From Phycisphaerales bacterium (GTDB lineage Bacteria > Planctomycetota > Phycisphaerae > Phycisphaerales > UBA5793), in the NCBI GenBank assembly GCA_026647365.1, contig JAPKGW010000003.1:23220-87219 (forward strand): 64,000 nt of DNA. The letters run 5' to 3'. The notes beneath the pieces are model-generated. The model was not told where the DNA came from. It searched no databases and worked only from the letters and a program-made list of their open reading frames with translations. Position numbers and translations under genes: made by a program. Of this stretch, positions 12,519 to 60,648 are shown piece by piece. How positions within the stretch are numbered: the stretch's first letter is position 1; the number at the start of each line of letters is the position of its first letter.

Positions 12519-13433
12519 TCAGGAAGTGGTCAAGGCGAACCGGCGATGAAGCAGGACGCAGCCGCCGAGCCAGAGAAGGATCCAGAACGCTGTGAAGCAC
12601 AGCAGAGCGACCGGCATCGGACCGCTGACGGAGGACATCCGGTTCTGTGTGACCGAGAAGTGATCCGCGACCGGGGCTCGACTGAGCAGGGAATGAAGAG
12701 CCGGCCCCGATCGCTGGCCGTCCGTTGCGGTGTGAATGAAGCCGCACAGTGCGCCGGCCGCCTTGCTGCGCACGGGTGACTCTTCGCGCGGCGCCGCGCT
12801 GTTCTCCTCGAGGAACTTGAGCATCGCCGCCTCATCGAGTTCAGTGAGCGGCCGTCGCTTCGGCTGCCTTTCCGTCCACCACTGTTCCGCATCAAAGTCA
12901 ACGCGAAGGACCGCTCCCGGCGGCGCGAGGAAGCGGCCTGTATGGAGGATCCGAAAGGCCAGGCGGTCGGCACGGTCTGCCGCCAGCGCTGCATCCGGCC
13001 CGCTGCCTTCGCCCAGGGGCCAGACGAGCCGGTCTGAGTTCGCGACCATCTCGATCACCTGCGCCGGAGGCGTCAGCAGGCCGAGGTTCCACACGTGCTC
13101 GCGCTGAGTGCGAGCGGGCACCACGGTTGACGTGAGCACTCTCGTGATCACCAGCGACGGGATCGGCAGCAGGAGCGACCAGAGGATGATCGCCAGCCAC
13201 GGTCCGAGCGGGCGGCGAATCGCGGGCGTGAGGATGCCCACGGCTCGCAGATCGGAGCCGCATTCGGGGCAATGGAGCGAGGTCAGACCTTCGACCGGAT
13301 AGCGGCAGGCGGCGCAGCAGGGGCGTGCGACATCCGGCATCTTGAGGGTCCGTCCTGTCAAGTAGGCCATGTAGACAAACGCGCTGATGACCAGCGCGGC
13401 GCCGAGGAGGACCAGGGGAATGGCAAGGCTCAT
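12519..13433 (-). CDS. Membrane protein with cytoplasmic zinc-ribbon motif (unknown function)
   Basis: Start set to ATG 13433 (MSLAIPLVLLGAALVISAFVY), which forms an ATGA overlap with the upstream stop. The order is TM helix, CCAACRYPVEGLTSLHCPECGSDL, a second TM helix, a ~170-aa soluble region, then a C-terminal TM helix. Confidence 0.6.
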   Translation of the reverse strand: MSLAIPLVLLGAALVISAFVYMAYLTGRTLKMPDVARPCCAACRYPVEGLTSLHCPECGSDLRAVGILTPAIRRPLGPWLAIILWSLLLPIPSLVITRVLTSTVVPARTQREHVWNLGLLTPPAQVIEMVANSDRLVWPLGEGSGPDAALAADRADRLAFRILHTGRFLAPPGAVLRVDFDAEQWWTERQPKRRPLTELDEAAMLKFLEENSAAPREESPVRSKAAGALCGFIHTATDGQRSGPALHSLLSRAPVADHFSVTQNRMSSVSGPMPVALLCFTAFWILLWLGGCVLLHRRFALTTS

Positions 13434-13963
13434 GGATCGCCTGGACTTTCGGATCGGGGCCTGGGAAAGTGTAGAAGAGTTGGCGCCCCGCATTCCGGGC
13501 ACACATCCGGAGAGTGGCCGCTGAGGGTGTAGCCGCAGTGACTGCACACATCAGGTCGCATCAGGAGGTCACTCGGCAGGAGGGCGGTGAGCAGCAGCGC
13601 CAGAATCGGGACAAGCAGGCCGAGCGTGACGACCGACCAGATCAGCGCGCCGGAAGAAGCGACGGCCGCGGCTGCGGCGAGGGCTGCGACGTAGATGATG
13701 GGAAGCGCCAGGACCTGCTTCTTCCGCGCGATCGTCATGCACAGGACCGGCGCGTGTGCGAGTCCGAGGATCGCTCCGACCGGGACGGCGAGGAGGGAGG
13801 CGACCCACAGGTCGGTCGGACCGCCGCGAAGCACGATCGCCGCCGCGAGCGACAATGCCAGGCACGCGATCGCGCCGCACGGCGCGATGATCACCAGCCG
13901 CCGGCGCCGGCGATCCAGTTCGTGTTGAGCCGACACATCGTCGATTGTTTCGATCTGGTTCAC
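13430..13963 (-). CDS. Polytopic membrane protein with C-terminal zinc-ribbon motif (unknown function)
   Basis: Start set to GTG 13963, 1 nt after the NDH-2 stop. The track start 14101 would overlap NDH-2 by 137 nt. Four hydrophobic helices are followed by CSHCGYTLSGHSPDVCPECGAP. Confidence 0.6.
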   Translation of the reverse strand: MNQIETIDDVSAQHELDRRRRRLVIIAPCGAIACLALSLAAAIVLRGGPTDLWVASLLAVPVGAILGLAHAPVLCMTIARKKQVLALPIIYVAALAAAAAVASSGALIWSVVTLGLLVPILALLLTALLPSDLLMRPDVCSHCGYTLSGHSPDVCPECGAPTLLHFPRPRSESPGDP

Positions 13964-13964
13964 G

Positions 13965-15629
13965 TCAGTCTCCCGCGCGACCGGTGGCGGGCGGGGATGG
14001 AGTGTCGCGTTCCGGCGCCGGGCGGTCGCCGCGTTGACGCGCGGTCTGCTCGAACTGCGTTCGCAGGACATCGAGATTGGCGATGAGGGAGGTGAATTCA
14101 CCCTTCTGGATGCTCAGCACGTCCATCGCCTCGATGCAGCGGACGGTGGCGTTGCGCGGCGCACGGTTGAGCAGGGCCATCTCGCCGAAGTACTGTCCCG
14201 CGCCCAGATGCGCCACGGTCTGCGCCTCGGCGGAGCCGTCGATGAGCCGCTCTACGGCGGCCCGTCCTCGAATGACGATGTACACGCGGTCGCCGAGATC
14301 GCCCTGCTCGAAGACGGGCTGGCCCGGCTCGAAGTGCTCATGGTTGATCCCGCTGCTGCGCCCGAGGCGCAGCTGCACGATGTCGGGGGGCAGGACGAGA
14401 TCGACGATCCACGAGAGGCCGACGCGCAACTTCGCCGCCGCACCTGGAAGTTTGCTCCAGTAGACTGTGCGCCAGAGGAACCAGGCGGGCAGACCGGCCA
14501 GTTTCAGCCCCATCACCTGCGCCACGCCCTTGCGATGGCCCAGGGCGCAGAGCGAGCCGAGGCCCCTGAACGTGAAGGGCGTCAGCGGTCTTCCCTCATC
14601 GGAGGCGAGGATGTTGGAAGCGGCAACGCGCGCCTCGCGTATGGCATGCTGGGCCGTCGGCGGAGCGAACGCCGATTCATCAGGGCACTTGGCGTGCGGA
14701 AGCGGAACGAGGGCGCAATCGCCCAGCGCCCACACGTTCGTCGAGCCCTGGGCGCGCAGAAATGCGTCCACGACAATGCGCCCGCGGATCCTGGAAAGTG
14801 CCAGCGACTCGCAGACCGGGTTCGGATGGCTGGGGACGGTGGCCACGAGCGTGGCGGTGGGCAGGCGCGTGCCGTCCGAGAGCAAGGCATGATTGGCCGT
14901 GGCCGCCTGAAGCCGCGCATTGAGCATGATCTCGATCCCGCGCCGCCTGAGCAGGCGCTGCGCGTAGAGCGCGAGCGACTCATCGACCTCGGGCAGGATG
15001 CGCTCGCGCGAATGCAGAAGGATGAAGCGGCGCTTCTCGCGGCGGAGGCGCGGGTAACTCCGCGCCGCGCGCCGGACGAAGTCGTGCAGTTCGGCGATCA
15101 CCTCGACGCCGGAGAACCCGCCGCCGGCCACGACAAACGTGAGCAGGCGGGCGCGCAGGCCGATGTCGCGCTCGGATTCCGCCTCCTCGAGCACGTGGAT
15201 GACATGGTTGCGCAGTACGAGGGCGTCGCCGTGCGTCTTGAGGGGCATGGCGTGCTCAGCCAGCCCGGTCATGCCGCGGAAGTCCGTCACGTTGCCCAGC
15301 GCCACGACGAGGTGGTCGAAGGGCAGGACGAGGTGGCGCGGCTGAAAGCCCGGCGAGCAGATCACCTCCCGCCGCTCAAGGTCCACACTCTCCACGTCGC
15401 GCATGTGCAGTTGGGCGCCGGGGACGAAGCGGCGAATGGGAATCGTCGTGTCGGCGATTCCGATGCTCCCGCTGATGACTTCGGGCAGCATCGGCTGGAA
15501 GACGAGGTAGTTCTCACGGTTGACAAGGTGGACGTCGATGCGATCGCGGCCGCGACGGAGCAGTTCGCGCGCGGTGTAGACGCCCGCGAATCCGCCGCCG
15601 AGGATGACAATGCGCCTGCGATCACTCAT
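13965..15629 (-). CDS. Type II NADH dehydrogenase-like flavoprotein fused to a C-terminal cyclic-nucleotide-binding domain
   Basis: Two Rossmann motifs (IVILGGGFAGVYTAREL and FVVAGGGFSGVEV) and ALGDCA. The C-terminal ~130 aa form a CNB domain with phosphate-binding cassette GQYFGEMALLNRAPRNATV. Confidence 0.9.
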   Translation of the reverse strand: MSDRRRIVILGGGFAGVYTARELLRRGRDRIDVHLVNRENYLVFQPMLPEVISGSIGIADTTIPIRRFVPGAQLHMRDVESVDLERREVICSPGFQPRHLVLPFDHLVVALGNVTDFRGMTGLAEHAMPLKTHGDALVLRNHVIHVLEEAESERDIGLRARLLTFVVAGGGFSGVEVIAELHDFVRRAARSYPRLRREKRRFILLHSRERILPEVDESLALYAQRLLRRRGIEIMLNARLQAATANHALLSDGTRLPTATLVATVPSHPNPVCESLALSRIRGRIVVDAFLRAQGSTNVWALGDCALVPLPHAKCPDESAFAPPTAQHAIREARVAASNILASDEGRPLTPFTFRGLGSLCALGHRKGVAQVMGLKLAGLPAWFLWRTVYWSKLPGAAAKLRVGLSWIVDLVLPPDIVQLRLGRSSGINHEHFEPGQPVFEQGDLGDRVYIVIRGRAAVERLIDGSAEAQTVAHLGAGQYFGEMALLNRAPRNATVRCIEAMDVLSIQKGEFTSLIANLDVLRTQFEQTARQRGDRPAPERDTPSPPATGRAGD

Positions 15630-15671
15630 GTGCGGTGCGTGGCCGGTGTGCGCGAGCCGGGGCGAGGAAGA

Positions 15672-16883
15672 TCACCGGAGGCATTCGACCATGGCGCGGA
15701 TGGCGGCGGACCATTCGTCGCCGTCGCCCCCGGCCGCGGCGGTCTCGTAGGCGGTCCAGAACGCCTCGGGTGCTTCCGCGCCTGCGGCCTTGAATGACGC
15801 GTCACACAGGGCCGTCACGCCGAAGGCAATGTTCTTGCGCTGTATTCTGCCAACGGCCTTGGGGGCGAGCGCGGCGACGTCGGCCGCGGCCGCCTTGCAC
15901 GCCTCGGCCGACCATGTTCCCTTGAGCAGCCCTTCGGGGGTGTCGGCGCCGAAGTGCTTTCTTGCAATCGCCGCGCCCTCGCCGTACATCTGCGCCAGGG
16001 CTTCGGCGACGGCGGTGTCCCACGTCTTTGCCTTCCACGCCTGGACCTGCGCCTTGGCCGCGGCCCACGACGCCGCCTGGCCCATCGCCCACAACTTCGC
16101 GCCGATCCACGGCACCTTCGAGTCGTCCCAGTGCGTCTCGTAGTCGCCGTTGTTGTAGAGGTAGTAGAAGTTGTAGGAGTACATCTCGAACTGGAGCGGC
16201 GGATGACCTGCGTCAAGCAGGTCCTTGTCGATCTGAAGGTGACACGAGACGCACATCGACGCGCGCAGCGACAGGTCCGTCGTGTCGATCAGCCCGTGCG
16301 TTGTGCGCAGGCCCGCCGTGCCGTGCTTGCCGCGCTCCTGGGCGGTCCATCCGGCGGCGGCGTGGGGATCGAGGTACTTCTCTCCGGGCCCGTGGCAGGA
16401 TTCGCAACCCACGGCGTTGTCAGCGACGACGAAGTTCGCGTCGCGTTGCGCCGGCGGGGCGTTGGTCGCGTGGCAGGAGATGCAGCGCTCCGAGGCCGAG
16501 GCGCTTTCGATGCTCATCTTCGCCGCGATCGCCCTGGACGTGTCGGAGAAGAGCGAACCGAAGGCCTCGCGGTGGGGATCGCGCGTGCTCCAGAGATTGT
16601 ACTCGTCGCCGATCAACTGGCCGGACTGCATCGTGGCCTGCTCCGCGCTGTGACAGCCGCCGCCCGAACAGCGCGGGTTGCCGAGATACCGGAATCCGGG
16701 CACGATCAGGGGATCCCCGGCTTGCGCCGCGGCCACGGCGCAAGCGACCGTCTCGACGTGGGGCCGAAGGGCGCACGCGGTCGTTCCTTGCAACCCGCTG
16801 CTCCATGCCGCAGCGAACGAGCCGGCGAGCAGCAGTGAAGGTGGGAGCAGTGCGGGCGCCAGCGAGCGAAGGCTGCGGGACAT
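15672..16883 (-). CDS. Secreted multiheme cytochrome c with an Ala-rich helical C-terminal domain
   Basis: Start set to ATG 16883 (MSRSLRSLAPALLPPSLLLAGSFAAAW signal-like), preceded by GGAGG. Heme motifs are CISCH, CESCH and CVSCH, plus CSGGGCH (CX4CH). Confidence 0.85.
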   Translation of the reverse strand: MSRSLRSLAPALLPPSLLLAGSFAAAWSSGLQGTTACALRPHVETVACAVAAAQAGDPLIVPGFRYLGNPRCSGGGCHSAEQATMQSGQLIGDEYNLWSTRDPHREAFGSLFSDTSRAIAAKMSIESASASERCISCHATNAPPAQRDANFVVADNAVGCESCHGPGEKYLDPHAAAGWTAQERGKHGTAGLRTTHGLIDTTDLSLRASMCVSCHLQIDKDLLDAGHPPLQFEMYSYNFYYLYNNGDYETHWDDSKVPWIGAKLWAMGQAASWAAAKAQVQAWKAKTWDTAVAEALAQMYGEGAAIARKHFGADTPEGLLKGTWSAEACKAAAADVAALAPKAVGRIQRKNIAFGVTALCDASFKAAGAEAPEAFWTAYETAAAGGDGDEWSAAIRAMVECLR

Positions 16884-17086
16884 TGGTGTGGGCCTCCATC
16901 CGGAGGGGTGTGAGTCTCTGTGCCAGTCCGGGCCGGCCACAACAGGATACGGCCCCAACGCGGGTCAAGCCTGTTCAACGCGCCAGCCGATTAGACTTAC
17001 CAGTCCCCGGCGCGGTCTTCTCCCGAACCCCGCCCCTTGTCCCCCGCCCGTCGCAACGGCGCCGCCTCACACAGGAGCATGTCGGC

Positions 17087-18691
17087 ATGGCCAGGCGGAT
17101 GCCCACCGTGAGACTCACCGGCGCAAGCGCCGCGGCGATGACTGCGGCCGACCTGGCACACATCGACATCTTCCGCGATCTCGACCGCAAAGTGATCGAG
17201 AGGTTTCCGGGCGCTGTGGTGCGGCGCGAGTTTGAGGCGGGTGAGGTCATCTGCCGCGAGGGTGAAGGCGGCACGACGGCGTTTTACATCGTCGAAGGCT
17301 CGGTGCAGGTCTTCATTGCGCGCCCGTGCGGTTCGAGCGCAGCCCGGCCCCACGGCTCGTGGCGCGCGATGATCGGGCGCCTGCTGGGACAGAAGTCCGT
17401 ATCGCCTCCCGTGCACGCGCACGACGATCTCATCCCCATCGACGCCAACGTGGACCTGACCTGGGGCCAGCCGCGCGCCGCGCTCGGCGCCGGCGAAGTT
17501 TTCGGCGAGATGAGTTGCCTCAATCTCGCGCCCCGGTCCGCGACGGTCGTCGCCGAGTCCGACTGCACGATGCTGGAAATCCTGCGCAACGTGTACGAGC
17601 ATCTCCAGAAGGCCCCGACCTTCCGCGAGCGGATGGACGCCAACTACCGCGCTCGCGCCCTTCAGGGCCATCTTCGCAATGTGCCGGTTTTTCGCGACCT
17701 GCCCGATCACGTGCTCAAGGGGCTCGACGAGCGCGCCCAACTGCTGGCCCTGGACGCGGGAACGACCATCTTCAGCCAGGGTGATGAAGCGGACGGCCTG
17801 TACATCATCCGCCTCGGACAGGTGCGCGTGAGCCAGGCGTTCGCGGGCGGCGAGAGAACACTGGCGTACCTGACTCGCGGCGACTTCTTCGGCGAGACGG
17901 GGCTGCTGCGCCACACGAAGCGCAATGCGACCTGCCGGGCCGTCGATCATCCGATCGTCGAAGGAGGCCGCCGGCGCCGGCCCGGTCGCGTCGAACTTGT
18001 GAAAATCCTCGCGGAAGACTTCGAGCCGGTGATGAAGGAGTTCCCGCGCATCAGGGGCCGCCTCGAAGCCATCGTCGGCGCGCGCAACCGCCAGGCCAGC
18101 GAGGCGAGAACCTCGATCACCGTTTCAGCGCCGAGCCGGCGCGTCGAGGACCTCGGCCTGCTCCAGGGTCAGAACCTCATGCTCATCGATCTCGAGCGCT
18201 GCACGCGCTGCGATCAGTGCGTGGACGCGTGCGTGTCGGCGCACGAGGATGGCATCAGCCGCCTCTTCCGCACCGGGCCTCGCTACGACAAGTACCTCGT
18301 GCCGTCGAGTTGCCGCATGTGCCTCGACCCCGTGTGCATGATCGGCTGCCCGGTCGGTTCGATCCGGCGGAGCGAAGACCTGAGCATCATCATCGAGGAC
18401 TGGTGCGTGGGATGCGGCATCTGCGCCAAGCAGTGCCCGTACGAGTCGATCGTCATGCACGAACTCGAGGAGTTCGGCCAGGAAGTGAGCGAGAGGCTGC
18501 GCCGCGTGGCGGAGAGCGGCGAGGTCGTGGCCGTCACCCAGCGCGCCGCCGTGTGCGATCAGTGCGAGAGCCTGCCGACGGGCCCGGCGTGCGTCTACGC
18601 CTGTCCGCATGACGCGGCTGCGCGCGTCAATGCCGCGGAGTTCCTCAGTGCCGGCGGGCTGTTTCAGACGGCGGCACGGGAAGGGGGGTAG
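17087..18691 (+). CDS. Two cyclic-nucleotide-binding domains fused to a four-cluster [4Fe-4S] ferredoxin (DmsB/NrfC-like)
   Basis: The real start is ATG 17087, 10 nt after AGGAG. The 375 codons upstream in the track ORF are antisense to the cytochrome gene. CNB cassettes are FGEMSCLNLAPRSATV and FGETGLLRHTKRNATC. Cys motifs are CTRCDQCVDAC, CRMCLDPVCMIGCP, CVGCGICAKQCP and CDQCESLPTGPACVYACP. Confidence 0.9.
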   Translation: MARRMPTVRLTGASAAAMTAADLAHIDIFRDLDRKVIERFPGAVVRREFEAGEVICREGEGGTTAFYIVEGSVQVFIARPCGSSAARPHGSWRAMIGRLLGQKSVSPPVHAHDDLIPIDANVDLTWGQPRAALGAGEVFGEMSCLNLAPRSATVVAESDCTMLEILRNVYEHLQKAPTFRERMDANYRARALQGHLRNVPVFRDLPDHVLKGLDERAQLLALDAGTTIFSQGDEADGLYIIRLGQVRVSQAFAGGERTLAYLTRGDFFGETGLLRHTKRNATCRAVDHPIVEGGRRRRPGRVELVKILAEDFEPVMKEFPRIRGRLEAIVGARNRQASEARTSITVSAPSRRVEDLGLLQGQNLMLIDLERCTRCDQCVDACVSAHEDGISRLFRTGPRYDKYLVPSSCRMCLDPVCMIGCPVGSIRRSEDLSIIIEDWCVGCGICAKQCPYESIVMHELEEFGQEVSERLRRVAESGEVVAVTQRAAVCDQCESLPTGPACVYACPHDAAARVNAAEFLSAGGLFQTAAREGG

Positions 18692-18815
18692 GGGCATGAG
18701 GCCGCAAGGAATCAATCCACCGTGGAATCGGGGAGCCGTGGCACGGGAAGACAACCGATCAGGCGCTGCATGCGAGAACGTCCGCGTCTTCGTCGAAGCG
18801 CACAGCATGAACTGA

Positions 18816-19688
18816 ATGATCATCGATCGATCGCACATCTCGTGGGGGGTCGGGACGACGATGGCGGCGGCTGGAGCCATCTGGTGGTACCTCGCCGATG
18901 CGCCGCGGCACCTCAACGGGCCTTCAGGCTCGACGGTCGTCGGCCTCACGCTCGGGTCCATCGCCTTCGGGATCATGCTCTTCTGCGCCGCCCTTTCGGT
19001 CAAGCGCAAAGCGCCGCACTGGCGCGTGGGGCGCGCCTCGACGTGGCTTCGCGGCCACATCTGGCTCGGTCTTCTCACCTGCGTGCTTGTGGGGCTGCAC
19101 GCGGCCTTTCGACTCGGCGGACCGGCCGCCATTTTGCTGTGGACGCTCCTCGGCCTCGTGACCATCAGCGGATTGCTCGGGCTGCTTCTCCAGCAGTTCG
19201 TCCCGCGCCTGCTTCTGCACAGTGTGCCCGGCGAGACCATTGCCGCGCAGGTGAATCGGCGCCTGAGCGACCTGGGCGCTCTCGCCGAGAAGATTGTCAT
19301 CCAGTATGCGGGGGCGCTCGATGCGGCCGCTCCGCCGTGGGAAGGCGCGGCCGTCGCGGGGGGTCGTCCTCCGGCGGGAGGCGAGCCGATCCGCAGGTTC
19401 TTTCTGGACCACCTGCGCGGCTATCTGGCCGGTGCGGCCTCGCCGGACCTGGCCGATCCCCATAGAGCGGAGAACCTCTTCAGCGCCCTGCGCACCATGA
19501 CCCCGCCGCATGCCCATGCCGCCATTGACGAGTTGACCGGCCTGTACCACCTGCGGCGCGACCTTCTGCGGCAGAGGCGCCTGATGCGCGTGCTCTTCCT
19601 CTGGCTCATCATTCACGTGCCCCTGAGTTGGGGCCTGCTCATTCTGGTCATCGCACATGCGGTTGCGGCCCTGCGCTTCTGGACGTGA
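18816..19688 (+). CDS. Five-TM membrane protein, candidate di-heme cytochrome b
   Basis: Hydrophobic helices lie at about residues 12-27, 41-62, 81-98, 103-127 and 258-286. His81/His95 (GHIWLGLLTCVLVGLH) and His267/His281 (IIHVPLSWGLLILVIAH) each have 13 intervening residues. ATG follows directly after an in-frame TGA. Confidence 0.7.
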   Translation: MIIDRSHISWGVGTTMAAAGAIWWYLADAPRHLNGPSGSTVVGLTLGSIAFGIMLFCAALSVKRKAPHWRVGRASTWLRGHIWLGLLTCVLVGLHAAFRLGGPAAILLWTLLGLVTISGLLGLLLQQFVPRLLLHSVPGETIAAQVNRRLSDLGALAEKIVIQYAGALDAAAPPWEGAAVAGGRPPAGGEPIRRFFLDHLRGYLAGAASPDLADPHRAENLFSALRTMTPPHAHAAIDELTGLYHLRRDLLRQRRLMRVLFLWLIIHVPLSWGLLILVIAHAVAALRFWT

Positions 19689-19716
19689 AGGGGCCTGACG
19701 CCGGCCGGATCAAATC

Positions 19717-20259
19717 ATGCCAGATACCCGACCTCTCGAAGAACGATTCGACATCACGTACGTGCGGGCCGTGCGCTGGCCCGAACTCGTGAATCGCTGC
19801 CTGATGTGGGTGGTGGTGCTCGCGGGCGGCGGAGCCCTGGCCCTACTCTCCGTGCGCGGGGACCATCGCCTCTACTCCTCGGGCGAACTGAATGTCGTTC
19901 ACGCGAGTTTCGGGAGCGACTGCGCGCAGTGTCATCAGCCGGCGCCCGGCGCGGGGACCAACTACTTCATGCCGGTGTCGGACCAGGCGTGTCTGCGCTG
20001 CCATGCCGCGGCTGAACACGCAGCGGGACAGTCCGCGTTCAGCGCCGACCTCGATGTTCTGATCCCCGGCCACGCCGGGCCGGTGCGGATGGCGGCCCGG
20101 TGCGCCCAGTGCCACGTCGAGCATCGTGGCCCGCAATCCAATCTCAATCTCGTCTCCGACCGCGTGTGCCTCCAGTGCCACTCTGACCTTGGCCTCCGAG
20201 GCTATTCCCGGGGAGATGATCGCGCCGGGGCGGCGTCGAACGGGGAGGGGGCGCCATGA
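19717..20259 (+). CDS. Membrane-anchored tetraheme cytochrome c
   Basis: N-terminal TM helix (CLMWVVVLAGGGALALLSV) and four CxxCH motifs: CAQCH, CLRCH, CAQCH and CLQCH. Confidence 0.85.
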   Translation: MPDTRPLEERFDITYVRAVRWPELVNRCLMWVVVLAGGGALALLSVRGDHRLYSSGELNVVHASFGSDCAQCHQPAPGAGTNYFMPVSDQACLRCHAAAEHAAGQSAFSADLDVLIPGHAGPVRMAARCAQCHVEHRGPQSNLNLVSDRVCLQCHSDLGLRGYSRGDDRAGAASNGEGAP

Positions 20260-21578
20260 CTCGCCTGGTCCTGCGCATCGCGGCCATCCTGTGTCTCGCC
20301 GCGGCCGCCGCTTCGCTCCTTCCGGCGCAGCCGCGCACGGACCCGTCCCTTGAGGCGGGCGTGGTGAACCGGGTGACAAATTTCATCACCGATCATCCCG
20401 AGTGGGCTGTCTTGCGCGACGGGCGAGACGACCTGGCGACCATCAACCTGACGCACCGCACGCACATGAACCCCGCAGCGCACCGGATGCAGCAACTCAT
20501 CACGAAAGCGGGCGAGGCCATTCCCGCGGTGGCGACGGGGCCCGACGGAGTTCGCACGCTCACCTGCGCCTCATGCCACGAAGCCGACGACGCCGGACGG
20601 TACATGAAGCCGATCCGCTTCGAGCGTCACTGCGCCTCGTGCCACGTTCCTGACTTTCCGGTGATCGAGGGCCGCCCCGTGCCGCACGGCGACGTGCCGG
20701 CGCTCGTGGACCGTGTTCAGCGGGCGGCAGGGTCCGACTACGCGGCGATGTCGGCGGCGCATGCGCTGCATCTCAACCCGGATGTATCTCGCATGCAGGA
20801 CCTGCTTGCGGCGGACCAGGGCGCGGGTCGCATCCCCGGCGTTGCCACCGACGCCGCAGGGAAGCGCACGCTGACGTGCTCCTCCTGTCACACGGCGAAG
20901 GACGATCAGGGCGCAATGAAGTCAGTTTCGTACAAGGCGCACTGCGCCTCGTGTCATGTACAGGAGCCGGCTTCGTTCCGCATCTCCGCGACGGCAACCG
21001 AGAACGCGGCGGCGTGGTTCGCGTCCGCTTCAATCGAGTCCTGGCCCGGCGCCGATGTCTGGCAACCCGGCGCGGGGCTGCTGGCTTCTGCTTCGTTCGC
21101 CGTGCGCACGGTGCAGCCCCGGCGCGACAAGGTTTACGCCCCCGAGGGGCACAAGACATTCGTCGGCGCCAACGACTGGATCAACCGCCGGCAAGTCACG
21201 GACTTCGCGCGGATCCGCGGGACGTGCGTTCGGTGCCACGCGAAGGAGTCGATTACCGCGCCGTCGCCGGACCGGCCGGGAGAGCCGTTTGACGTGGCGC
21301 CGCCGATGATCCCCGACCGATGGCTGGAGCGGTCGATCTTCTCTCACCGCGCGCACCGTGCCCTGACGTGCCTCGAGTGCCACGAGGGGGCGCAAGGGGG
21401 CACTCGGGCGGCCGACATCATGCTGCCGTCGATCGAGTCCTGCCGCAAGTGCCACACTCCGGCCGTGGGCGTTCGCTCGGACTGCGTTCTGTGCCACGTG
21501 TATCACCGGCCGATCAAGCCTGGGCCGCCGGGCACGATCACGATCGAGCAGTATTCAGGCGCGTCGGCTGAGCCGTGA
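20256..21578 (+). CDS. Secreted octaheme cytochrome c
   Basis: Signal-like MTRLVLRIAAILCLAAAAASLLPAQP and eight CxxCH motifs: CASCH, CASCH, CSSCH, CASCH, CVRCH, CLECH, CRKCH and CVLCH. The start overlaps the upstream stop (ATGA). Confidence 0.9.
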   Translation: MTRLVLRIAAILCLAAAAASLLPAQPRTDPSLEAGVVNRVTNFITDHPEWAVLRDGRDDLATINLTHRTHMNPAAHRMQQLITKAGEAIPAVATGPDGVRTLTCASCHEADDAGRYMKPIRFERHCASCHVPDFPVIEGRPVPHGDVPALVDRVQRAAGSDYAAMSAAHALHLNPDVSRMQDLLAADQGAGRIPGVATDAAGKRTLTCSSCHTAKDDQGAMKSVSYKAHCASCHVQEPASFRISATATENAAAWFASASIESWPGADVWQPGAGLLASASFAVRTVQPRRDKVYAPEGHKTFVGANDWINRRQVTDFARIRGTCVRCHAKESITAPSPDRPGEPFDVAPPMIPDRWLERSIFSHRAHRALTCLECHEGAQGGTRAADIMLPSIESCRKCHTPAVGVRSDCVLCHVYHRPIKPGPPGTITIEQYSGASAEP

Positions 21579-21594
21579 TCGCGTGCCGCCCGGG

Positions 21595-22746
21595 TCAGCG
21601 CCGCAGTCCGCGCAGCCGCTCAATCGCCGCGTGGAGGGTTTCGAGGCGCTTGCAGAAGGCGAAGCGGACGAGGCGCCGGCCGTGCTCCACGTTGTCATAG
21701 AAGGGAGTCGGCGGGATCGCCGCCACGCCGATTCTGTCCACGAGGTGCATGCAGAACGCACGGTCGTCCGGGAAGCCGAAGGGCGTGTGGTCGGCCAGAA
21801 CGAAGTACGTTCCTGCCGGTCGATACACGACGAATCCGATTTCTTCGAGAGCGTCGCAGAGCAGATCGCGCCTCCTGCGGTAGTCGCGGAGAAACCCGTC
21901 GAGGTATTCCTGACCGGCGCTCACGGCCTCGGCCGCACCGTGCTGGAGCGGCGTCGCCACCGAGTAACTCAGGAACTGCCGACCCGAGCGCACGCAGCGG
22001 CTCAGGTCCGGCGAGGCGATGGCCCAGCCGATCTTCCAGCCGGTCAGCGAGAATGTCTTGCCGACGGAGGAGAGCGTGATCGTGCGGTCCTTCATGCCCG
22101 GCAGCGTCGCCAGGCGCACGTGCTCGCCCTCGAAGACGAGGTGCTCGTAGACTTCATCGGTGATCGCAACGAGATCATTCCTGTTGCACAGTTCAGCGAT
22201 GAACGTGAGTTCGTCGCGGCTGAACACCTTGCCGGTCGGGTTGTGGGGCGTGTTGACGAGGATCGCGCGGGTGCGCGAGGTGACGGCCCGCTGCAGCGCC
22301 GCATGGTCGAGGGCGAACTCCGGTGCGGCGAGCGTGAGAACGATCGCCTTGGCGCCGCACATCTCGATGCAGGGCTTGTAGGAGTCGTAGTACGGCTCAA
22401 AGATGATGACCTCGTCTCCCTCATTGAGCAGGCCCAGGCATGTCGCCGCAATTCCCTCGGTGCATCCGTTGGTCACGCTCACCTGCGTATCCGGATCGAT
22501 GATCTGCCCCGTGAGGCGCCGCCACCGCTGCGCGAGGGCCTGGTTGAGCGGGGGCACGCCCGACATCCGCGCGTACTGGTTGTGGCCCGCGTTGATCGCT
22601 TCGATGGCGGCGCTGCGCACGAACGCCGGACCGTTGAAGTCGGGGAAGCCCTGCGAGAGGTTGATCGCGCCCTTCTCGTTGGCCAGGCGGGTCATCTCCG
22701 TGAAGATCGACGTGCCGTAGGACGCGAGACGGTGGGAGACGGTCAT
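21595..22746 (-). CDS. Class I/II pyridoxal-phosphate aminotransferase (methionine/kynurenine aminotransferase-like)
   Basis: INLSQGFPDF, NQYARMSGVPPL, NTPHNPTGKVF and the PLP-lysine region SSVGKTFSLTGWKIGW. Confidence 0.9.
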   Translation of the reverse strand: MTVSHRLASYGTSIFTEMTRLANEKGAINLSQGFPDFNGPAFVRSAAIEAINAGHNQYARMSGVPPLNQALAQRWRRLTGQIIDPDTQVSVTNGCTEGIAATCLGLLNEGDEVIIFEPYYDSYKPCIEMCGAKAIVLTLAAPEFALDHAALQRAVTSRTRAILVNTPHNPTGKVFSRDELTFIAELCNRNDLVAITDEVYEHLVFEGEHVRLATLPGMKDRTITLSSVGKTFSLTGWKIGWAIASPDLSRCVRSGRQFLSYSVATPLQHGAAEAVSAGQEYLDGFLRDYRRRRDLLCDALEEIGFVVYRPAGTYFVLADHTPFGFPDDRAFCMHLVDRIGVAAIPPTPFYDNVEHGRRLVRFAFCKRLETLHAAIERLRGLRR

Positions 22747-22799: not shown

Positions 22800-24515
22800 A
22801 TGATGATAGCGAAGAGGAGTCGCCGTCGAAGACTGGGCATCTACTACACGCCGCCCGCTCTGATCGGCCCGATTCTCGATGCGGCGCTCGATCCGATCCT
22901 GGCGGAAATGGGCGACGAGGCGTCGTGCGCGGCGCGCCTGGCGACGCTGCGCATCATTGATCCTGCGTGCGGCAGCGGTCGTTTTCTCATCGCGGCATGG
23001 AGGCGACTGGCGCGAAGGATTGAGGGCGCGGCGCGCCCTGCGAACCGGGTCGACCTGCTCCGAGCGGCCGCCGCGTCGCTGCACGGCATCGACATCGACC
23101 CGCAGGCGGGTCTTCGCGGAGCGCGCCTGCTGCGCGCCGAGTGCGGTCGCGGCCCGCTGGCGCCGCGCGACTTTTCCAACTGGTTCGTGCTCGGCGACGC
23201 GCTGCTCGACGAGTGTGCGGGCGAGGCTTGTTTCGACCTCGTGCTCGGCAATCCTCCTTTCGTTGACTCCGAATCAATGTGCGAGGCGGATCGCGGCCGC
23301 CGCCCTCGACTCGCCGCGCGCTACGAGACCGCTCGGGGCAACTGGGACCTCGCCGCCCTTTTCGTCGAGCGCGCCGTACAACTGGTGCAGCCCGGCGGAC
23401 GCATCGGCCTTGTGCTGCCCCGCCGCCTGTTCGCATCCGATCATGCGCGGCGCGTGCATCGGCTCATGGAGAGGCAGACGATCGAGTCGATCCGGCTCAA
23501 TGCTCCCGACGCGTTCGAGGATGCGGCCGTCAAGACCGTCAGCGTCGTCATGCGGCGCGCTGTGCCATGCGCCGATCATGCAATCTGCATCATGGATGCA
23601 GGTGCCTGCTCGTGGAGCGCACTGCAGCGGGGTCTGCGACTGCTCCCGCCGGGCCACTGGTCGGCGATCCTGTCTCGCCCGCCCGTGCGTGATCGACGCC
23701 GTTGGGCAGAGCGAGAGTCCATGCCGGTGCTCTTCGCCTCCGATGTGACGGCGGCGCTTCGCGGCCGCCCGCGCCTGCGCGACATGGCCTTCGTCGGCGA
23801 CGGCGCGACGACGGCCGAAGCCTACGTCATCCGCGACGCGATCATCGAGGCGGGCGAGTGCGGCGCACCCGCGGCGCCTCTGATCAACACGGGGACAATC
23901 GATCCGTTCGTGAAGCGGTGGGGGAGCCGGCCGACGCGCTACCTGCGGCGAGCCTGGATTCGGCCCGTGGTTCCGCTCGAATGGCTGGATGAACATCTGC
24001 CCCGGCGTGCGGCACAGTCGCGGTCGCCGAAGGTGCTCGTCGCAGGTCTCGCGGGGCGCATCGAAGCGGTCGTCGATGAAGTCGGCGCCCTGTGCGGCAA
24101 GTCGGCGGTGCAGATCATCCCGCGCGACCCCGCCGTGACCCACGCCCTGTGCGCGTGGCTGAACTCGACGCCGGTCAACGCGCTCTATCGATTGCTCTTC
24201 GAATCGCGAGGTTTCGGGGCGAGGTCGATGCACCTGGGTCCGCGACAGATCGAGCAACTTCCCCTCTGGCCTCCCTTCGAACCGAACGGCGCCGAAGCGA
24301 TCGAGGAACTGGCCGCACTCAGCCGGCGCATGCACAGTCTTGCAGCCGGCGATGCGCCGCAGTCCGGCGCGAACCTTCAACCCGAGGCGATGCGCGCGGC
24401 CCTCGACCGCATCGACGAGATTGCCGCGGCGCTGCTGCGTGCCGGGAGCGAACTGCCGCCTGCGCTCAGCGCGACGGATCGACGGGAATCGCGGGCGCGG
24501 GATCGAGTTCCATGA
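22800..24515 (+). CDS. N6-adenine DNA methyltransferase, Eco57I/TaqI (gamma) type with TaqI-like C-terminal target-recognition domain
   Basis: LGIYYTPPALI (motif X), IIDPACGSGRFLIAA (AdoMet motif I), VLGNPPFV (motif IV, NPPF). The C-terminal half resembles the TaqI specificity domain (INTGTIDPF...PKVLVAG...CAWLNSTPVNALY). Confidence 0.85.
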   Translation: MMIAKRSRRRRLGIYYTPPALIGPILDAALDPILAEMGDEASCAARLATLRIIDPACGSGRFLIAAWRRLARRIEGAARPANRVDLLRAAAASLHGIDIDPQAGLRGARLLRAECGRGPLAPRDFSNWFVLGDALLDECAGEACFDLVLGNPPFVDSESMCEADRGRRPRLAARYETARGNWDLAALFVERAVQLVQPGGRIGLVLPRRLFASDHARRVHRLMERQTIESIRLNAPDAFEDAAVKTVSVVMRRAVPCADHAICIMDAGACSWSALQRGLRLLPPGHWSAILSRPPVRDRRRWAERESMPVLFASDVTAALRGRPRLRDMAFVGDGATTAEAYVIRDAIIEAGECGAPAAPLINTGTIDPFVKRWGSRPTRYLRRAWIRPVVPLEWLDEHLPRRAAQSRSPKVLVAGLAGRIEAVVDEVGALCGKSAVQIIPRDPAVTHALCAWLNSTPVNALYRLLFESRGFGARSMHLGPRQIEQLPLWPPFEPNGAEAIEELAALSRRMHSLAAGDAPQSGANLQPEAMRAALDRIDEIAAALLRAGSELPPALSATDRRESRARDRVP

Positions 24516-29611: not shown

Positions 29612-32600
29612 CTACCGCTTGAAGGTCGCGTCGGCGCGGACGGCCTTGCCGGCCTCGACGGTGACATTCTGCGTGCTCTCGCCGAGTATCGGATGGTGGA
29701 AGACGACCTCGTACTGCCCCGGCGGCAGGCCGGCGATGCGGTACACGCCGCGACCGTCCGACACGGCGTGATACGAATGGTCGAAGACGTAGATGAGTGC
29801 GTTCATCCAGGCGTGAACTTCGCACTTGAGGCGCATTCCCATTTCCGGCGCATTGAACACCTGCCGATGGACCATGCCCATGACCGGCTGGGCGACGTTG
29901 AAGCCCGCATTCTTCTCGGCGGTGAGTTTGAGGTTGTGGTTCAGCGGATCACTGTTGCGCATCTCGAGCGGCTGGCCCGTGGTGATGGTGCTGACATGAG
30001 GCTCGTAGATGCAGCCGTTCTGGTTGATCACCTTGCCGCCGTCAAGCGGGTTTCTGCCGGCAGGCGCGCTGCGGATGAACACCACAACGTCGGCGAGCGA
30101 GCCGTTGTCGTTGATGACGACATCGGCGGTCAGCGGGGTCGGCAGGCCACGCTCGCGCGAGACCGCCTGGCAGGCCGCATCGAGGCGGACCCGCGTCCGG
30201 CGAGGCGCCGGCCCCTCGAAGGCGATCAGGCCGGCGATCGAGCCCGTCGCGGGGTCGGCGTTGTTCAGCACCGAGGCGACGGCGGCTTCGCGGTCTTCCG
30301 CTTTCTGCTCGGGAGTGAGTTCCGGCCGTTGCGCCGGTGTCGGAGTCGGCGCCGGTTCGGCGCCGCCGTTCTTCTCGCCCGGGTCGGCTTCGGCCTGGGC
30401 GGGCGCCTGGGCCGGCGGAGCCTCGCCGCGCGCCTCAGCCTCGCGACGCCGCTGCTCGGCGAACGCCTCGAGGTCGATGGCGGCGGTCGGCGACTTCTCG
30501 TCCCTGAGCAGGTGCTCACCCACGGTGTATCGCCGCTTGCCCGCGGCATAGAGCCAGCGCACGATCAGGTCAATCTGTCCCTCGGGATCGGAGCCATAAA
30601 GCGCCTCGAACTTCCGTCGAGTCTCCTCGGGATAGCCTGCGGCAGCGCTGACGGCGCCCGTGTCGCCGAAGAGCGACGGCATTTTGGTGCCCGGCATGAT
30701 CGAGTTCGGCTGGCGGAGCCAGTTCCTGACGTAGTCCTCCTGGAGGCGGACGTAGGTCAGCGCAAGGTTGGGCGCGCTGATCTTGTCATAGAGCGACGGC
30801 GCCTGCTCCTGCGCGGGCTCGTCAGAGCCGTAGGGATCCTGTTCGTCTTCCCCGTAGCCGCCGCCTTCTTCCTCTTCTCCTTCGCCGCTGCCGTACGGAT
30901 CAGGCTCCTCGTCCGCAGCGGGGAGCGGCTCGTTCTGCATCTCAAAGATGCGTTCGAGTTTGTCCCATTGGCCCAGCGCGTGGCAGGCGAAGCAGCCCAG
31001 GTCGGTGACGATTTTCTCGCCAAGGGCGAACTCCTCGGGAGTCATGTTGTCAATGGGCGGCGCCTGGAAGGGGAAGTCGACGCCCTCGTAGACGCCGCGC
31101 AGGAACCGCAGGTCATGCCAGATCTGGCCGTGCTTGCGTGCGAACTCTTCGGGCGAGTCGGAACGCGAAGGGAAGAGATTGGGGGCATAAAGCCCATGCG
31201 CCCGCGCGGTCTGCACGATCGCGTCGCGCGTTCTCTCGAACGGTTCGGGCAGGAGCATTCGGCCGACGGCTTCCTGGGCGGCGGCGCGTGCAAGTTCATC
31301 AGCGGTCTTGGCCGTGCTGCCCGAGGCGACGACCTCCTTGAACCGGTCTCGATACGCCCGGTCATACTCGCTGGTGAGGGCGGCGTCCACCGGCTGCAGG
31401 TGTTTCGCGATCAGCCGCGCATCCATCGTCGTCTGTCCGGCGACGTACTCGACGAGCCACTGCGTCTCCTGCGGCGTGAGGTTGAAACTCGGCATGCGGA
31501 TTTCGAGCCACGGCCGGAGCATCTCGACGTTGTTGAGGAATGAATAGAACCAGGCATGCTGGGTCTTGGCGCCGTTGCCGACGATGCGCGGCGGGGCGTT
31601 GGGCAGATTCTCCTGCGTCTGGGCGTAGTTGACGCTCCCGTCACGGCCGCGGATTTCGAAGTACTGCCTGACGTTGGGGACGTTGTTCTCAATGTCGTGG
31701 CATCCGAAGCAGTTGAGCGCCTCGGCCATGAGGCGGCCGCGGGCGCGCATCGTGGCGGGATCGTCGGCCGCGTTGCGCAGCGAGCCGCGCACCAGCGGCG
31801 GCTTGAGGCTCGTCACGTACGCCACCAGCGCCCGCGCCTCCGAATCGCGCATGAAGAAGCGCGGCATGCGCAACTTGAGGTAGGGCTCGCCCACCGAGCG
31901 GATCTCGACGTCGGCGTCGCCCAGGCCCGAGTCCTTCCCTGTCGCCAGGTCGACGTAGCGACCCTCCCGTCTGACCAGCCGGCGAGTTCCGTCGCGCCGG
32001 GCGGCGTAGATGATCTCGCCCTCGGGCGTCATCTCGCCCTCGACGTTGAGTTTGCTGCGATCGAAGATGCGGCTGTTGTGCAGTTTCGCGTGGAGATAGC
32101 CGCGGCGGTCGTTGGGCACGTGCTCCCACGCCAGCGTGCGCTTCGACACCAGCGGGTCATGCGCGTCGCCGCTGATCTTCACCGCGTCCTCGGTCAACCC
32201 TTCGCGCTGCACGAACCAGACGTCGGTCTGTGGCGGCCTCTGGTGATCGAAGATGTGTTCGAAGAAGCCGAAGTCGAGTTTGTGCGGGTCCTTGCGCCCG
32301 TAGGTGCTGAGGTTGGCGGACACGGCGAGTGCGGAGTCAAAGCCGCTGATCTGGTGGCAGCCGAAGCAGCCGTAATGCTGGATCATGCGGGAGCCGAGGT
32401 CGAACTGCTTTTCTTCGAGCGACATGGAGGCAAGCCGGTCACGTGCCGCCCGGTCGGAGATCGCGTTGCGCTGGAGGTTGATGAGCAGGGCGTCGATCAT
32501 CTGCTCGTCGGCCTCGAAGTGCTGAGGTTCATAGGCCGGGTGCTTCTGCTCGAGCAGGTACGCCGCCAGGTCGAGCGCTTCCTGCTCGGAAAGGCGGAAC

Positions 32601-59801: not shown

Positions 59802-60527
59802 TCAATCCCCCCCGAGAGGCTCAAGCAAGGCCCGCAGGTCAGAGATGAGGTGTACGCCCACGTCGTCAGCCTGCGGGCGTCGGACGATGACGGGCCGCGG
59901 CACGGCTTCGTGCTTCGCGCGGGCAGGTCGGGCGTGATCGAGCAGGACCTGCAGCGTGAAACGCGGATCGAAAGCGCCGCAGCCGAGATCGGCTGGATCG
60001 AGGTTCTCGCCTGCGGGATCGGGCGCGGCGTCGGCGAGGATGAAGGCGGCACCGGCCGCCGCGAGCGCTTCCGCGATCCTCAGGAGATGATCTTCGCGAT
60101 GGGGGATCATGCTCGGCTCGAAGAGCGCGACGGGATTGAGCGCCAGGCCGATGTGCGCGTCTCCATGCTCGCGCAGAAAGACGGCGGCGGTGAGCGCATC
60201 GTGCAGGATGTGGCGGCAGTGCGGCTCGATGAGCAGGCGGATCCGAAGACGAACCAGGTCGGGCCGCAGGGAGAAGAGGTGATCGGCGAGCCGGGCCGCA
60301 GCGCCCGCCATCCAGTTGCGCGGCACGGGCGCGCCGAGGTCGTCGCCAAGCGAACCGGAGTTGATCAGCAGGGTCGTGCCGGCGAATCGTTCCAGCGCCC
60401 TCCGATCGAGTTGCAGCGCGTTGCCGCGCCATACACGGGCGAGCGGGGCGGCGCCGCCGGCGCGCGGACCGAGGGGGATGATGAGAGCCTCGTCGTCCGC
60501 CGCGCCCGCCTGTTCAACGTAGAGCAT
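59802..60527 (-). CDS. Hypothetical protein (possibly xylose-isomerase-like TIM-barrel fold)
   Basis: Start tentatively ATG 60527 (MLYVEQAG...); the track start is 60650. There is only weak resemblance to sugar-phosphate isomerase/epimerase barrels (LLIEPH...IGLALNP). Function is not supported beyond that. Confidence 0.45.
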   Translation of the reverse strand: MLYVEQAGAADDEALIIPLGPRAGGAAPLARVWRGNALQLDRRALERFAGTTLLINSGSLGDDLGAPVPRNWMAGAAARLADHLFSLRPDLVRLRIRLLIEPHCRHILHDALTAAVFLREHGDAHIGLALNPVALFEPSMIPHREDHLLRIAEALAAAGAAFILADAAPDPAGENLDPADLGCGAFDPRFTLQVLLDHARPARAKHEAVPRPVIVRRPQADDVGVHLISDLRALLEPLGGD

Positions 60528-60648
60528 GAAGGCAAAGAGTAGGGGAGGTCTCGCCCTTCGACCGCCGCTGCGACAACGCACGAATTCCACTCGGCGGCAG
60601 ATCGGGGGCGGCCTCGATCCAACCGATAGAATCGGGCAGAACCCCGTC

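Follow-up and report, generated by a model that had tools for sequence, protein, structure and literature searches.

A 64,000-nucleotide stretch of DNA from a Phycisphaerales bacterium (contig JAPKGW010000003.1; the whole stretch is referred to as the window) encodes a small membrane protein, here called the target (Table 1), that is probably a two-haem cytochrome b wiring cytoplasmic NAD(P)H/iron-sulfur (Fe-S) modules to periplasmic cytochromes c. This reading draws on sequence features, conservation, predicted topology, synteny and weak homology. The two-haem interpretation was put forward in an initial annotation of the window and is supported here, haem binding itself being something that we infer.

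Histidine pattern, conservation and predicted topology

The target carries two pairs of histidines, His81/His95 and His267/His281, on transmembrane (TM) helices 3 and 5. The translation puts them at exactly the codons, and the predicted structure on exactly the helices, that the initial annotation had named, and it bears out the 13 residues counted between the members of each pair. The same annotation had been ready to give way if these residues varied among homologs. All four histidines, and with them W77, G85, G101, W263 and P269, are invariant in an alignment of 66 full-length sequences that are 25-85% identical and have a mean column identity of 35%. A larger set of 191 aligned sequences, the window protein and 190 homologs down to ~25% identity, retains His81 and His95 in every member, His267 in 190 and His281 in 189 (alignment gaps are among the exceptions), and the (13,13) spacing is kept in 190 of the 191. 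Histidines and spacing held this firmly against a mean column identity of only 35% argue that the pattern is not due to chance. Both inner histidines are preceded by a W-x3-H motif (W77-H81 and W263-H267), and TM2 and TM4 each bear a conserved stripe of small residues (Table 1); the glycines of the TM2 stripe are of the type that would leave space for haem.

An AlphaFold2 model built on 66 homologs (predicted local distance difference test 91.7, predicted template modelling score 0.81) has helices at residues 6-31, 41-65, 74-95, 103-136, 143-165, 190-204, 215-228 and 231-287, the last of which ends three residues before the C-terminus. Hydropathy windows fall only on residues 38-64, 80-131 and 256-290, TM1 being less hydrophobic. 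The model helices and the agreeing hydropathy windows therefore give five membrane helices, the number initially predicted, and the loop of ~130 residues that had been foreseen between helices 4 and 5 appears in the model as a soluble helical insert of ~125 residues (helices 143-165, 190-204 and 215-228). The TM2-TM3 loop contains six Lys or Arg residues and no Asp or Glu, and there is a single positive charge in each outer loop; under the positive-inside rule this would place the TM2-3 loop and the TM4-5 insert in the cytoplasm and the C-terminus in the periplasm. TM3 and TM5 would consequently both run from inside to outside, which brings His81 and His267 to the cytoplasmic level and His95 and His281 to the periplasmic level of the membrane. 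Covarying pairs suggest that TM1 packs against TM3. The codon-position G+C of the open reading frame (ORF) resembles that of the surrounding real genes, with a third-position value of 0.83 in a window of 66.8% G+C.

A word-indexed search returned 91 relatives, nearly all from metagenome-assembled genomes (MAGs) of Phycisphaerales or other Planctomycetota, and all named 'hypothetical protein' save for one UniRef label, 'Ferric reductase like transmembrane component'. When 1.84 billion cluster representatives (50% identity) were searched with a HMMER profile, 5165 proteins matched at E<=0.001, 837 of them at E<=1e-30, and the family is therefore large. Relatives were found in 245 genomes when one genome per GTDB species was scanned with one narrow peptide pattern; the lineages include Phycisphaerales, Gemmataceae, Planctomycetaceae, Methylomirabilota/Rokubacteria, Bryobacterales/Terriglobia and Wallbacteria, and the closest relatives of the window are marine Planctomycetota/Phycisphaerales MAGs. 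Loci L048 and L045 both carry the title Kuenenia (anammox); for L048 the label looks doubtful and was not relied on, its 90%-identity cluster having members labelled Planctomycetaceae or Gemmataceae, from freshwater MAGs.

The insert region has a conserved E140 and the consensus 'PPxGxEPLRRFY', and the TM4-TM5 loop varies in length from 66 to 240 residues (median 128) across the 191 sequences. The inserts of the aligned members are rich in Ala and Pro. Some members, P0139, P0187, P0176 and P0193 among them, have inserts that reach several hundred residues, in proteins of 629-883 residues; a search of these expanded loops for redox domains found no Pfam domain anywhere, and no member was found fused to haem c or Fe-S motifs. 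The N-terminal extensions of some members look like mis-called starts.

Gene neighbourhood and synteny

Synteny was counted over 57 loci with enough flanking sequence, from at least four phyla. A gene for a protein combining cyclic nucleotide monophosphate (cNMP)-binding domains with 4Fe-4S motifs, called PtdE-like for reasons given below, is present in 55 of them, in most cases directly upstream of the target homolog. A multihaem cytochrome c gene is likewise found in 55/57, and the two occur together in 54/57, which backs the link between Fe-S and cytochrome c subunits drawn in the initial annotation. A module for NAD(P)H oxidation adjoins in 40 loci, being of the NuoEF type in 32 and of the PtdC type in eight. 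Pfam domain content bears out the NuoEF type in L061 (Bryobacteraceae), L030 (Rokubacteria) and L048; the operon of L061 and L048 runs from a NuoE+NuoF fusion, through a NuoG N-terminus joined to cNMP and Fer4 domains, to a PtdF-like protein and a 10-haem cytochrome c. Judged by its domain order, this operon is a complex-I N-module placed on a putative haem b/haem c wire instead of on the quinone module. In Pikeienuella piscinae (L004), and also on the contig that carries P0090, a 795-residue fusion of Pyr_redox_2, cNMP and Fer4 domains lies upstream of the target homolog and abuts it. Three unrelated solutions to NAD(P)H binding are thus found on one Fe-S/b/c trio, which argues that the trio joins the cytoplasmic pyridine-nucleotide pool to periplasmic cytochromes, and we consider this the strongest argument for the proposed role.

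The NuoEF-type clusters lie at 6159-12208 in L061, 6137-12660 in L030 and 8351-15085 in L048 (Acidobacteriota, Rokubacteria and a Planctomycetota clade, respectively). Beyond the multihaem cytochrome the genes vary by lineage and encode HbpS-like proteins (GlcG-type, haem-binding or haem-degrading), NHL beta-propellers and LVIVD-repeat proteins (L030, 12669-14228; L061, 12303-13394; L004, 11213-13395 and from 16408 onward), which may be terminal partners of the wire.

A gene cluster named ptdABCDEFG has been described in a preprint by Elbon et al. (2023-24; bioRxiv 10.1101/2023.11.21.568154), which reports it from Alpha- and Gammaproteobacteria, Nitrospirales and Planctomycetes of saline habitats, calls the PtdF subunit 'ferric reductase-like', states that the function of the cluster 'remains completely unknown' and gives no analysis of PtdF His ligands. 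The name 'ptdABCDEFG' was not found in any other paper of the literature searched, and the cluster description points only to the preprint. The window genes at 13965-21578 match ptdC-G in architecture and order, an identification made by architecture and not by sequence; the target, placed between PtdE-like and PtdG-like genes with PtdC-like and PtdD-like genes adjoining, occupies the position of ptdF. Unlike the described cluster, that of the window is not flanked by genes for the pentahaem PtdA or the porin PtdB, its C and D genes are transcribed divergently from E-F-G, and PtdG is represented by two proteins, one with 4 haems and one with 8. The name of the cluster and its gene order were already known, and as an independent description the preprint would count in favour of our reading of the window genes. 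The initial label 'unannotatable' holds in so far as the members are nearly all called 'hypothetical protein', but not in so far as the preprint already names the subunit PtdF and 'ferric reductase-like'.

Table 1. Features of the target and of the genes beside it, in positions of the window (res, residues of the target; AF2, AlphaFold2 model)
Feature	Position	Strand	Details
PtdC-like NDH-2-type flavoprotein, 554 aa	13965..15629	-	Pyr_redox_2 + NDH2_C + C-terminal cNMP-binding domain (Pfam)
PtdD-like cytochrome c554-type protein	15672..16958	-	3 CxxCH + 1 Cx4CH; divergent; Pfam Cytochrome_C554 1.7e-7
PtdE-like protein, 534 aa	17087..18691	+	cNMP-binding domains, then four 4Fe-4S-type Cys motifs; Pfam cNMP_binding 1.6e-35, Fer4 families
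Target gene (PtdF-like), predicted two-haem cytochrome b	18816..19688	+	Translation 290 aa; five TM helices
TM1, res 6-31	18831..18908	+	AF2 helix; covarying pairs A21-L91, H7-I82, D28-L94
TM2, res 41-65	18936..19010	+	AF2; G43, G47 invariant or near-invariant
TM3, res 74-99	19035..19112	+	W77-x3-H81-x-W-L-G85 ... H95; AF2 helix 74-95
His81 codon	19056..19058	+	TM3
His95 codon	19098..19100	+	TM3
TM4, res 103-136	19122..19223	+	AF2; conserved stripe S118/G119-G122-Q126-P130
TM4-TM5 insert, res 137-230, predicted cytoplasmic	19224..19505	+	AF2 helices 143-165, 190-204, 215-228
Long helix, res 231-287; C-terminal part (~256-287) = TM5	19506..19676	+	W263-x3-H267-x-P-x-S271 ... H281
His267 codon	19614..19616	+	TM5
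His281 codon	19656..19658	+	TM5
PtdG-like part 1, 180 aa	19717..20259	+	N-terminal membrane anchor; 4 CxxCH; Pfam Cytochrom_c3_2 1.4e-10
PtdG-like part 2, 440 aa	20256..21578	+	Signal peptide; 8 CxxCH; 4-nt overlap with part 1

The four Cys motifs of the PtdE-like protein lie at residues 372, 409, 440 and 490; no convincing export signal was seen, and the protein is predicted to be the cytoplasmic electron partner of the target. The PtdC-like flavoprotein, a candidate for the entry point of NAD(P)H, is kept at 47-80% identity in L001, L007-L010, L013, L023, L053, L072 and L078. The PtdD-like gene is a conserved neighbour in many loci, and its product probably starts at the Met of 'MSRSLRSL...', near 16883. 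The first PtdG-like gene begins 28 nt past the stop codon of the target; in many other genomes a single 10-haem protein takes this position, with 10 CxxCH motifs in L030, L048, L050 and L061. Finding cNMP domains on an NDH-2-type flavoprotein and on a four-cluster ferredoxin is unusual, and by their domain content these proteins suggest that second messengers may gate electron flow. The cNMP domains of the PtdC-like and PtdE-like proteins have intact phosphate-binding cassettes of the form 'FGE...R-[ST/N]-A' (GQYFGEMALLNRAPRNATV, GEVFGEMSCLNLAPRSATV and GDFFGETGLLRHTKRNATC). A promoter and terminator scan of 16800-21800 found nothing in the intergenic gaps and was uninformative.

Several other genes of the window were recorded. 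Beyond the PtdC-like gene, the ORFs 12519-13547 and 13430-14101, both on the reverse strand, encode predicted membrane proteins with zinc-ribbon-like CxxC...CxxC motifs ('CPECGSDL' and 'CPECGAP') and no Pfam match; they overlap by ~118 nt, so at least one start must be mis-called. Downstream of the cluster, after an aminotransferase gene, the forward strand encodes an Eco57I/MmeI-type N6-adenine DNA methyltransferase of 571 residues (22800-24515). An ORF of 1945 codons on the reverse strand (29612-35449), 8 kb from the ptd-like cluster, has an N-terminal membrane segment and eight CxxCH motifs; with Pfam matches to Cytochrom_C (7e-21), Cytochrome_CBB3 and a C-terminal CarboxypepD_reg, its product is by prediction a giant multihaem or multi-domain cytochrome c. 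At 60526-62361 (forward strand), a 611-residue protein combines Fer4_5 and 4Fe-4S dicluster domains with a C-terminal TPR; Fer4_5 is typical of NapH/RdxA-type membrane Fe-S proteins, and this protein may be another membrane redox component.

Relationship to known cytochrome b families

On the target, Ferric_reduct (PF01794; the FRD superfamily of Zhang et al. 2013) scores 16.3 bits against a cut-off of 28 (E 0.011, residues 46-104, a stretch that takes in the TM3 motif, on profile positions 1-60) and DUF4405 (PF14358) 14.1 bits against 26.7 (E 0.07). When the 66 members were scanned, Ferric_reduct was reported for 45 (best E 1.8e-5), DUF4405 for 22 (best E 5.5e-4) and Ni_hydr_CYTB for nine (best E 8.6e-7; the window protein itself has no match), every reported score lying below its cut-off. 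We take these three models to belong to one Pfam clan of two-haem cytochromes. One homolog, P0038, carries a precomputed PF01794 match. Once the insert had been removed in silico, three out of ten members matched the 121-position Ferric_reduct profile over positions 1-120 (E 6e-5 to 8e-3), reaching at most 23.5 bits, below the cut-off. The most distant members, P0090 and P0091, matched Ni_hydr_CYTB over positions 46-165 after the same deletion (E 1e-5 and 6e-5), with 25.8 bits for P0090 against a cut-off of 30.1. Comparison by hhalign of the family with single E. coli MsrQ and YodB sequences was not significant. A local alignment sets the R-x-x-L-G...H of MsrQ opposite H-x-W-L-G...H and has no statistical weight.

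From these profile comparisons we conclude that the target family is distinct and without a model of its own, its nearest recognisable relatives being ferric-reductase-domain proteins. The comparison with bc1-type cytochrome b made in the initial annotation holds for the H-x13-H spacing, which is common to both, but the nearest relatives belong to the ferric-reductase superfamily and not to bc1, NarI or FdnI. Membership of the named families was considered and set aside in each case. The models of bc1/b6f cytochrome b (Cytochrome_B, Cytochrom_B_N; eight TM helices in bc1) and NarI (Nitrate_red_gam; five TM helices with a His pattern of its own) remain unmatched even at E<=1, for the window protein and for the 66 members; FdnI and HydC gave no match or sub-threshold matches only; DUF4405 stays below its cut-off of 26.7 bits; and the four-TM cytochrome b561/Ni_hydr_CYTB group (PF01292; FdnI, HyaC, CybB) stays below 30.1 bits, the YodB comparison by hhalign being empty. 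Assignment to MsrQ/YedZ was rejected on the His kept at position 81, the missing profile similarity and the lack of a molybdoenzyme gene nearby.

The target resembles the NOX and FRE proteins of PF01794 in having four histidines, H81/H95 in TM3 with 13 residues between them and H267/H281 in TM5, that would ligate an inner and an outer haem, and in its 'H-x-W-L-G' type motif in TM3. The likeness would extend to a cytoplasmic donor, an acceptor on the outside and cytoplasmic loops (the B and D loops of NOX) that face the dehydrogenase. Unlike NOX and FRE, the target has five TM helices and not six, a TM5 spacing of 13 where NOX2 has 12, and an insert of ~125 residues between TM4 and TM5, and it scores below the Pfam cut-off. 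Its donor would be a separate Fe-S protein, not a fused FAD/NADPH domain, and its acceptor a cytochrome c chain, not O2 or Fe(III). The E. coli 'two-component NOX-like' system MsrQ (YedZ)/Fre/MsrP is similar in that a stand-alone membrane cytochrome b of ferric-reductase type links a separate cytoplasmic reductase to a periplasmic redox protein, but the MsrQ family has Arg in place of the first TM3 His, and its partner is a molybdoenzyme, not a set of multihaem cytochromes.

In the DsrMKJOP, HmcABCDEF and TmcABCD complexes of sulfate reducers, an Fe-S subunit of the cytoplasm is encoded together with a membrane-bound two-haem cytochrome b and a multihaem cytochrome c of the periplasm. The target cluster shares this Fe-S/b/multihaem c logic, and weak NCBIfam matches of DsrJ, DsrO and TmcA fall on genes neighbouring the target. 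In contrast to the target cluster, those complexes have quinone-linked b subunits of the NarI/HdrE type and an HdrD-like cytoplasmic subunit that contains CCG domains; Pfam and NCBIfam scans gave no NarI/HdrE-type or HdrD-like/CCG match for the target or the PtdE-like protein. What appears to be new here, as far as can be read from sequence, is that a ferric-reductase-like two-haem core is predicted to combine with five TM helices and a cytoplasmic insert of large size, with a donor that is a separate Fe-S protein and with multihaem cytochromes c as acceptor.

Proposed electron path, alternatives and significance

In the model that we favour, two b haems would be stacked across the membrane within a four-helix bundle of TM2-TM5, the cytoplasm-side haem held by His81 (TM3) and His267 (TM5) and the periplasm-side haem by His95 and His281. 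This pairing by membrane level matches that of NOX2, H101/H209 and H115/H222 (PMC3591440), which supports the proposed arrangement. The TM2-3 loop and the ~125-residue TM4-5 insert would dock the cytoplasmic four-cluster PtdE-like protein, fed in turn by a flavoprotein that oxidizes NAD(P)H, in the window the NDH-2-like PtdC and in other phyla a NuoE/F/G-like module or a fused Pyr_redox_2 domain. At the outer face, the acceptors would be the membrane-anchored 4-haem and the soluble 8-haem cytochromes c, whose genes follow directly downstream. Overall, the module would wire NAD(P)H to periplasmic cytochrome c without a quinone, perhaps under the control of cAMP or cGMP, and would resemble a NOX whose parts are separate subunits and whose acceptor, in place of O2, is a cytochrome chain. 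The outward direction is assumed because the NOX, FRE and MsrQ relatives behave in this way and because the membrane potential favours outward movement of electrons; the reverse direction through the module is possible.

Helix packing tests are consistent with this arrangement and bear indirectly on whether the histidines face lipid, the second condition under which the initial annotation would have been given up. By the conservation moment, none of the four histidines departs by more than 55 degrees from the conserved face of its own helix, and the moment of TM4 (0.70) was reached by 0/5000 shuffles and that of TM5 exceeded by 0.2% of them (p=0.002). The top 40 pairs of a mean-field covariation analysis connect mainly TM2-TM3, TM3-TM4, TM4-TM5, TM2-TM5 and TM1-TM3, at matching membrane depths. 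A single TM3-TM5 pair is among them, and such scarcity is expected of a bundle with haems between these two helices. Together, conservation moment and covariation fit a ring of TM2-3-4-5 with TM3 and TM5 on the diagonal and something held between them.

A number of results weigh against the favoured model. The conservation moment of TM3, which is conserved all round, is not significant, and the test is in part circular, since the histidines contribute to the very moment against which they are placed. With an effective number of ~158 sequences, the power of the covariation analysis is low. The target has five TM helices against the six of the ferric-reductase domain. Pfam and NCBIfam scans of the target brought no model to its cut-off and nothing relevant in NCBIfam, and the initial statement that no family motif could be recognised stands to that extent, the only Pfam matches being the sub-threshold Ferric_reduct and DUF4405 signals. 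A search of PDB sequences with the family alignment as profile returned only chance helical matches (best E 0.08), and Foldseek of the full model against the PDB gave none at E<0.001, the top matches being long-helix sensors such as TorS. The loop-deleted alignment was not significantly similar to an MsrQ alignment by hhalign (probability below 1%), where the MsrQ profile was thin, its relatives all being at least 77% and mostly above 84% identical. No NAD(P)H module is nearby in 17 of the 57 loci, and since PtdC carries NDH2_C, a quinone step is possible. Haem binding, the pairing of the histidines, contact between PtdE and PtdF, the direction of the electrons and the regulation are moreover deduced and not observed.

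The quinone step leads to an alternative that we consider unlikely, in which the target is a quinol dehydrogenase or quinone reductase, like FdnI, HyaC, CybB or NarI, that passes electrons from the quinone pool to the multihaem cytochromes c; PtdC would then feed the quinone pool, and the Fe-S/cNMP protein would be a regulator or a side branch. Such a role would suit the NDH2_C membrane and quinone-side domain of the PtdC-like protein, the best scores of P0090 and P0091 on Ni_hydr_CYTB, a family that includes quinone-reactive cytochromes b (scores below cut-off), and the nature of CymA, ImcH and CbcL, known inner-membrane entry points to multihaem chains, which are quinol oxidases. However, PtdC is present in only eight of the 57 loci against 55 for the Fe-S protein, whose gene is usually separated from that of the target homolog by 0-130 nt or overlaps it, and 32 loci have a soluble NADH module of the NuoEFG type, which needs no quinone, either fused to the Fe-S protein or encoded ahead of it. 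No quinone-site motif turned up, though no search was aimed at one, and the ferric-reductase-type relatives move electrons from cytoplasmic flavin/NAD(P)H outward without a quinone site (PMC3591440).

These relatives are also the source of a second alternative, a conduit of the MsrQ/STEAP type with one haem, or a haem and a flavin, in which haem would be bound by the outer His pair only and the inner His pair would bind another cofactor or be structural. Most short bacterial proteins with a ferric-reductase domain (YedZ/MsrQ, STEAP) do bind a single outer haem (PMC3591440), and the RefSeq label of E. coli MsrQ is 'flavocytochrome'. The single-haem families, however, have Arg in place of the first TM3 His and Gln at the inner TM5 position (PMC3591440), whereas all four histidines are invariant here and W-x3-H precedes both inner ones, which makes this version improbable. 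Least probable of all, in our view, is a protein without redox function that merely co-occurs with redox genes, its conserved His, Trp and Gly residues forming the lining of a sensor or of a channel for metal or small molecules. The absence of a family model above threshold and of a PDB structural neighbour for the whole model by Foldseek would be in keeping with it, but two H-x13-H pairs on membrane helices predicted to be parallel are a hallmark of two-haem cytochromes b, the sub-threshold matches are mainly to two-haem cytochrome families (45, 22 and 9 of the 66 members) and not to transporters, and in at least four phyla the gene has an Fe-S gene on one side and a cytochrome c gene on the other.

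For the favoured two-haem wire, precise targets for mutagenesis are available in the four histidines, the two W-x3-H motifs, G85, G122, Q126, P130 and E140. Lacking a Pfam or NCBIfam model, the family escapes routine annotation and the metabolic reconstructions of these organisms, and its carriers belong to lineages that are environmentally abundant and poorly cultivated. We tentatively extend the proposal to a widespread quinone-free respiratory or redox-balancing device, built from PtdE, PtdF and PtdG with interchangeable NAD(P)H modules and switched by cyclic nucleotides, the trio being found here in Planctomycetota, Acidobacteriota, Methylomirabilota/Rokubacteria and Wallbacteria. To our knowledge, the known inner-membrane gateways to multihaem chains (CymA, ImcH, CbcL, NapC and NrfH types) all take their electrons from the quinone pool. 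If the proposal is true, the module would offer a different route for electrons out of, or into, the bacterium, electrogenic like NOX and with cAMP/cGMP-binding domains on its donor side, and would amount to a modular bacterial 'NOX' that yields a reduced cytochrome wire.

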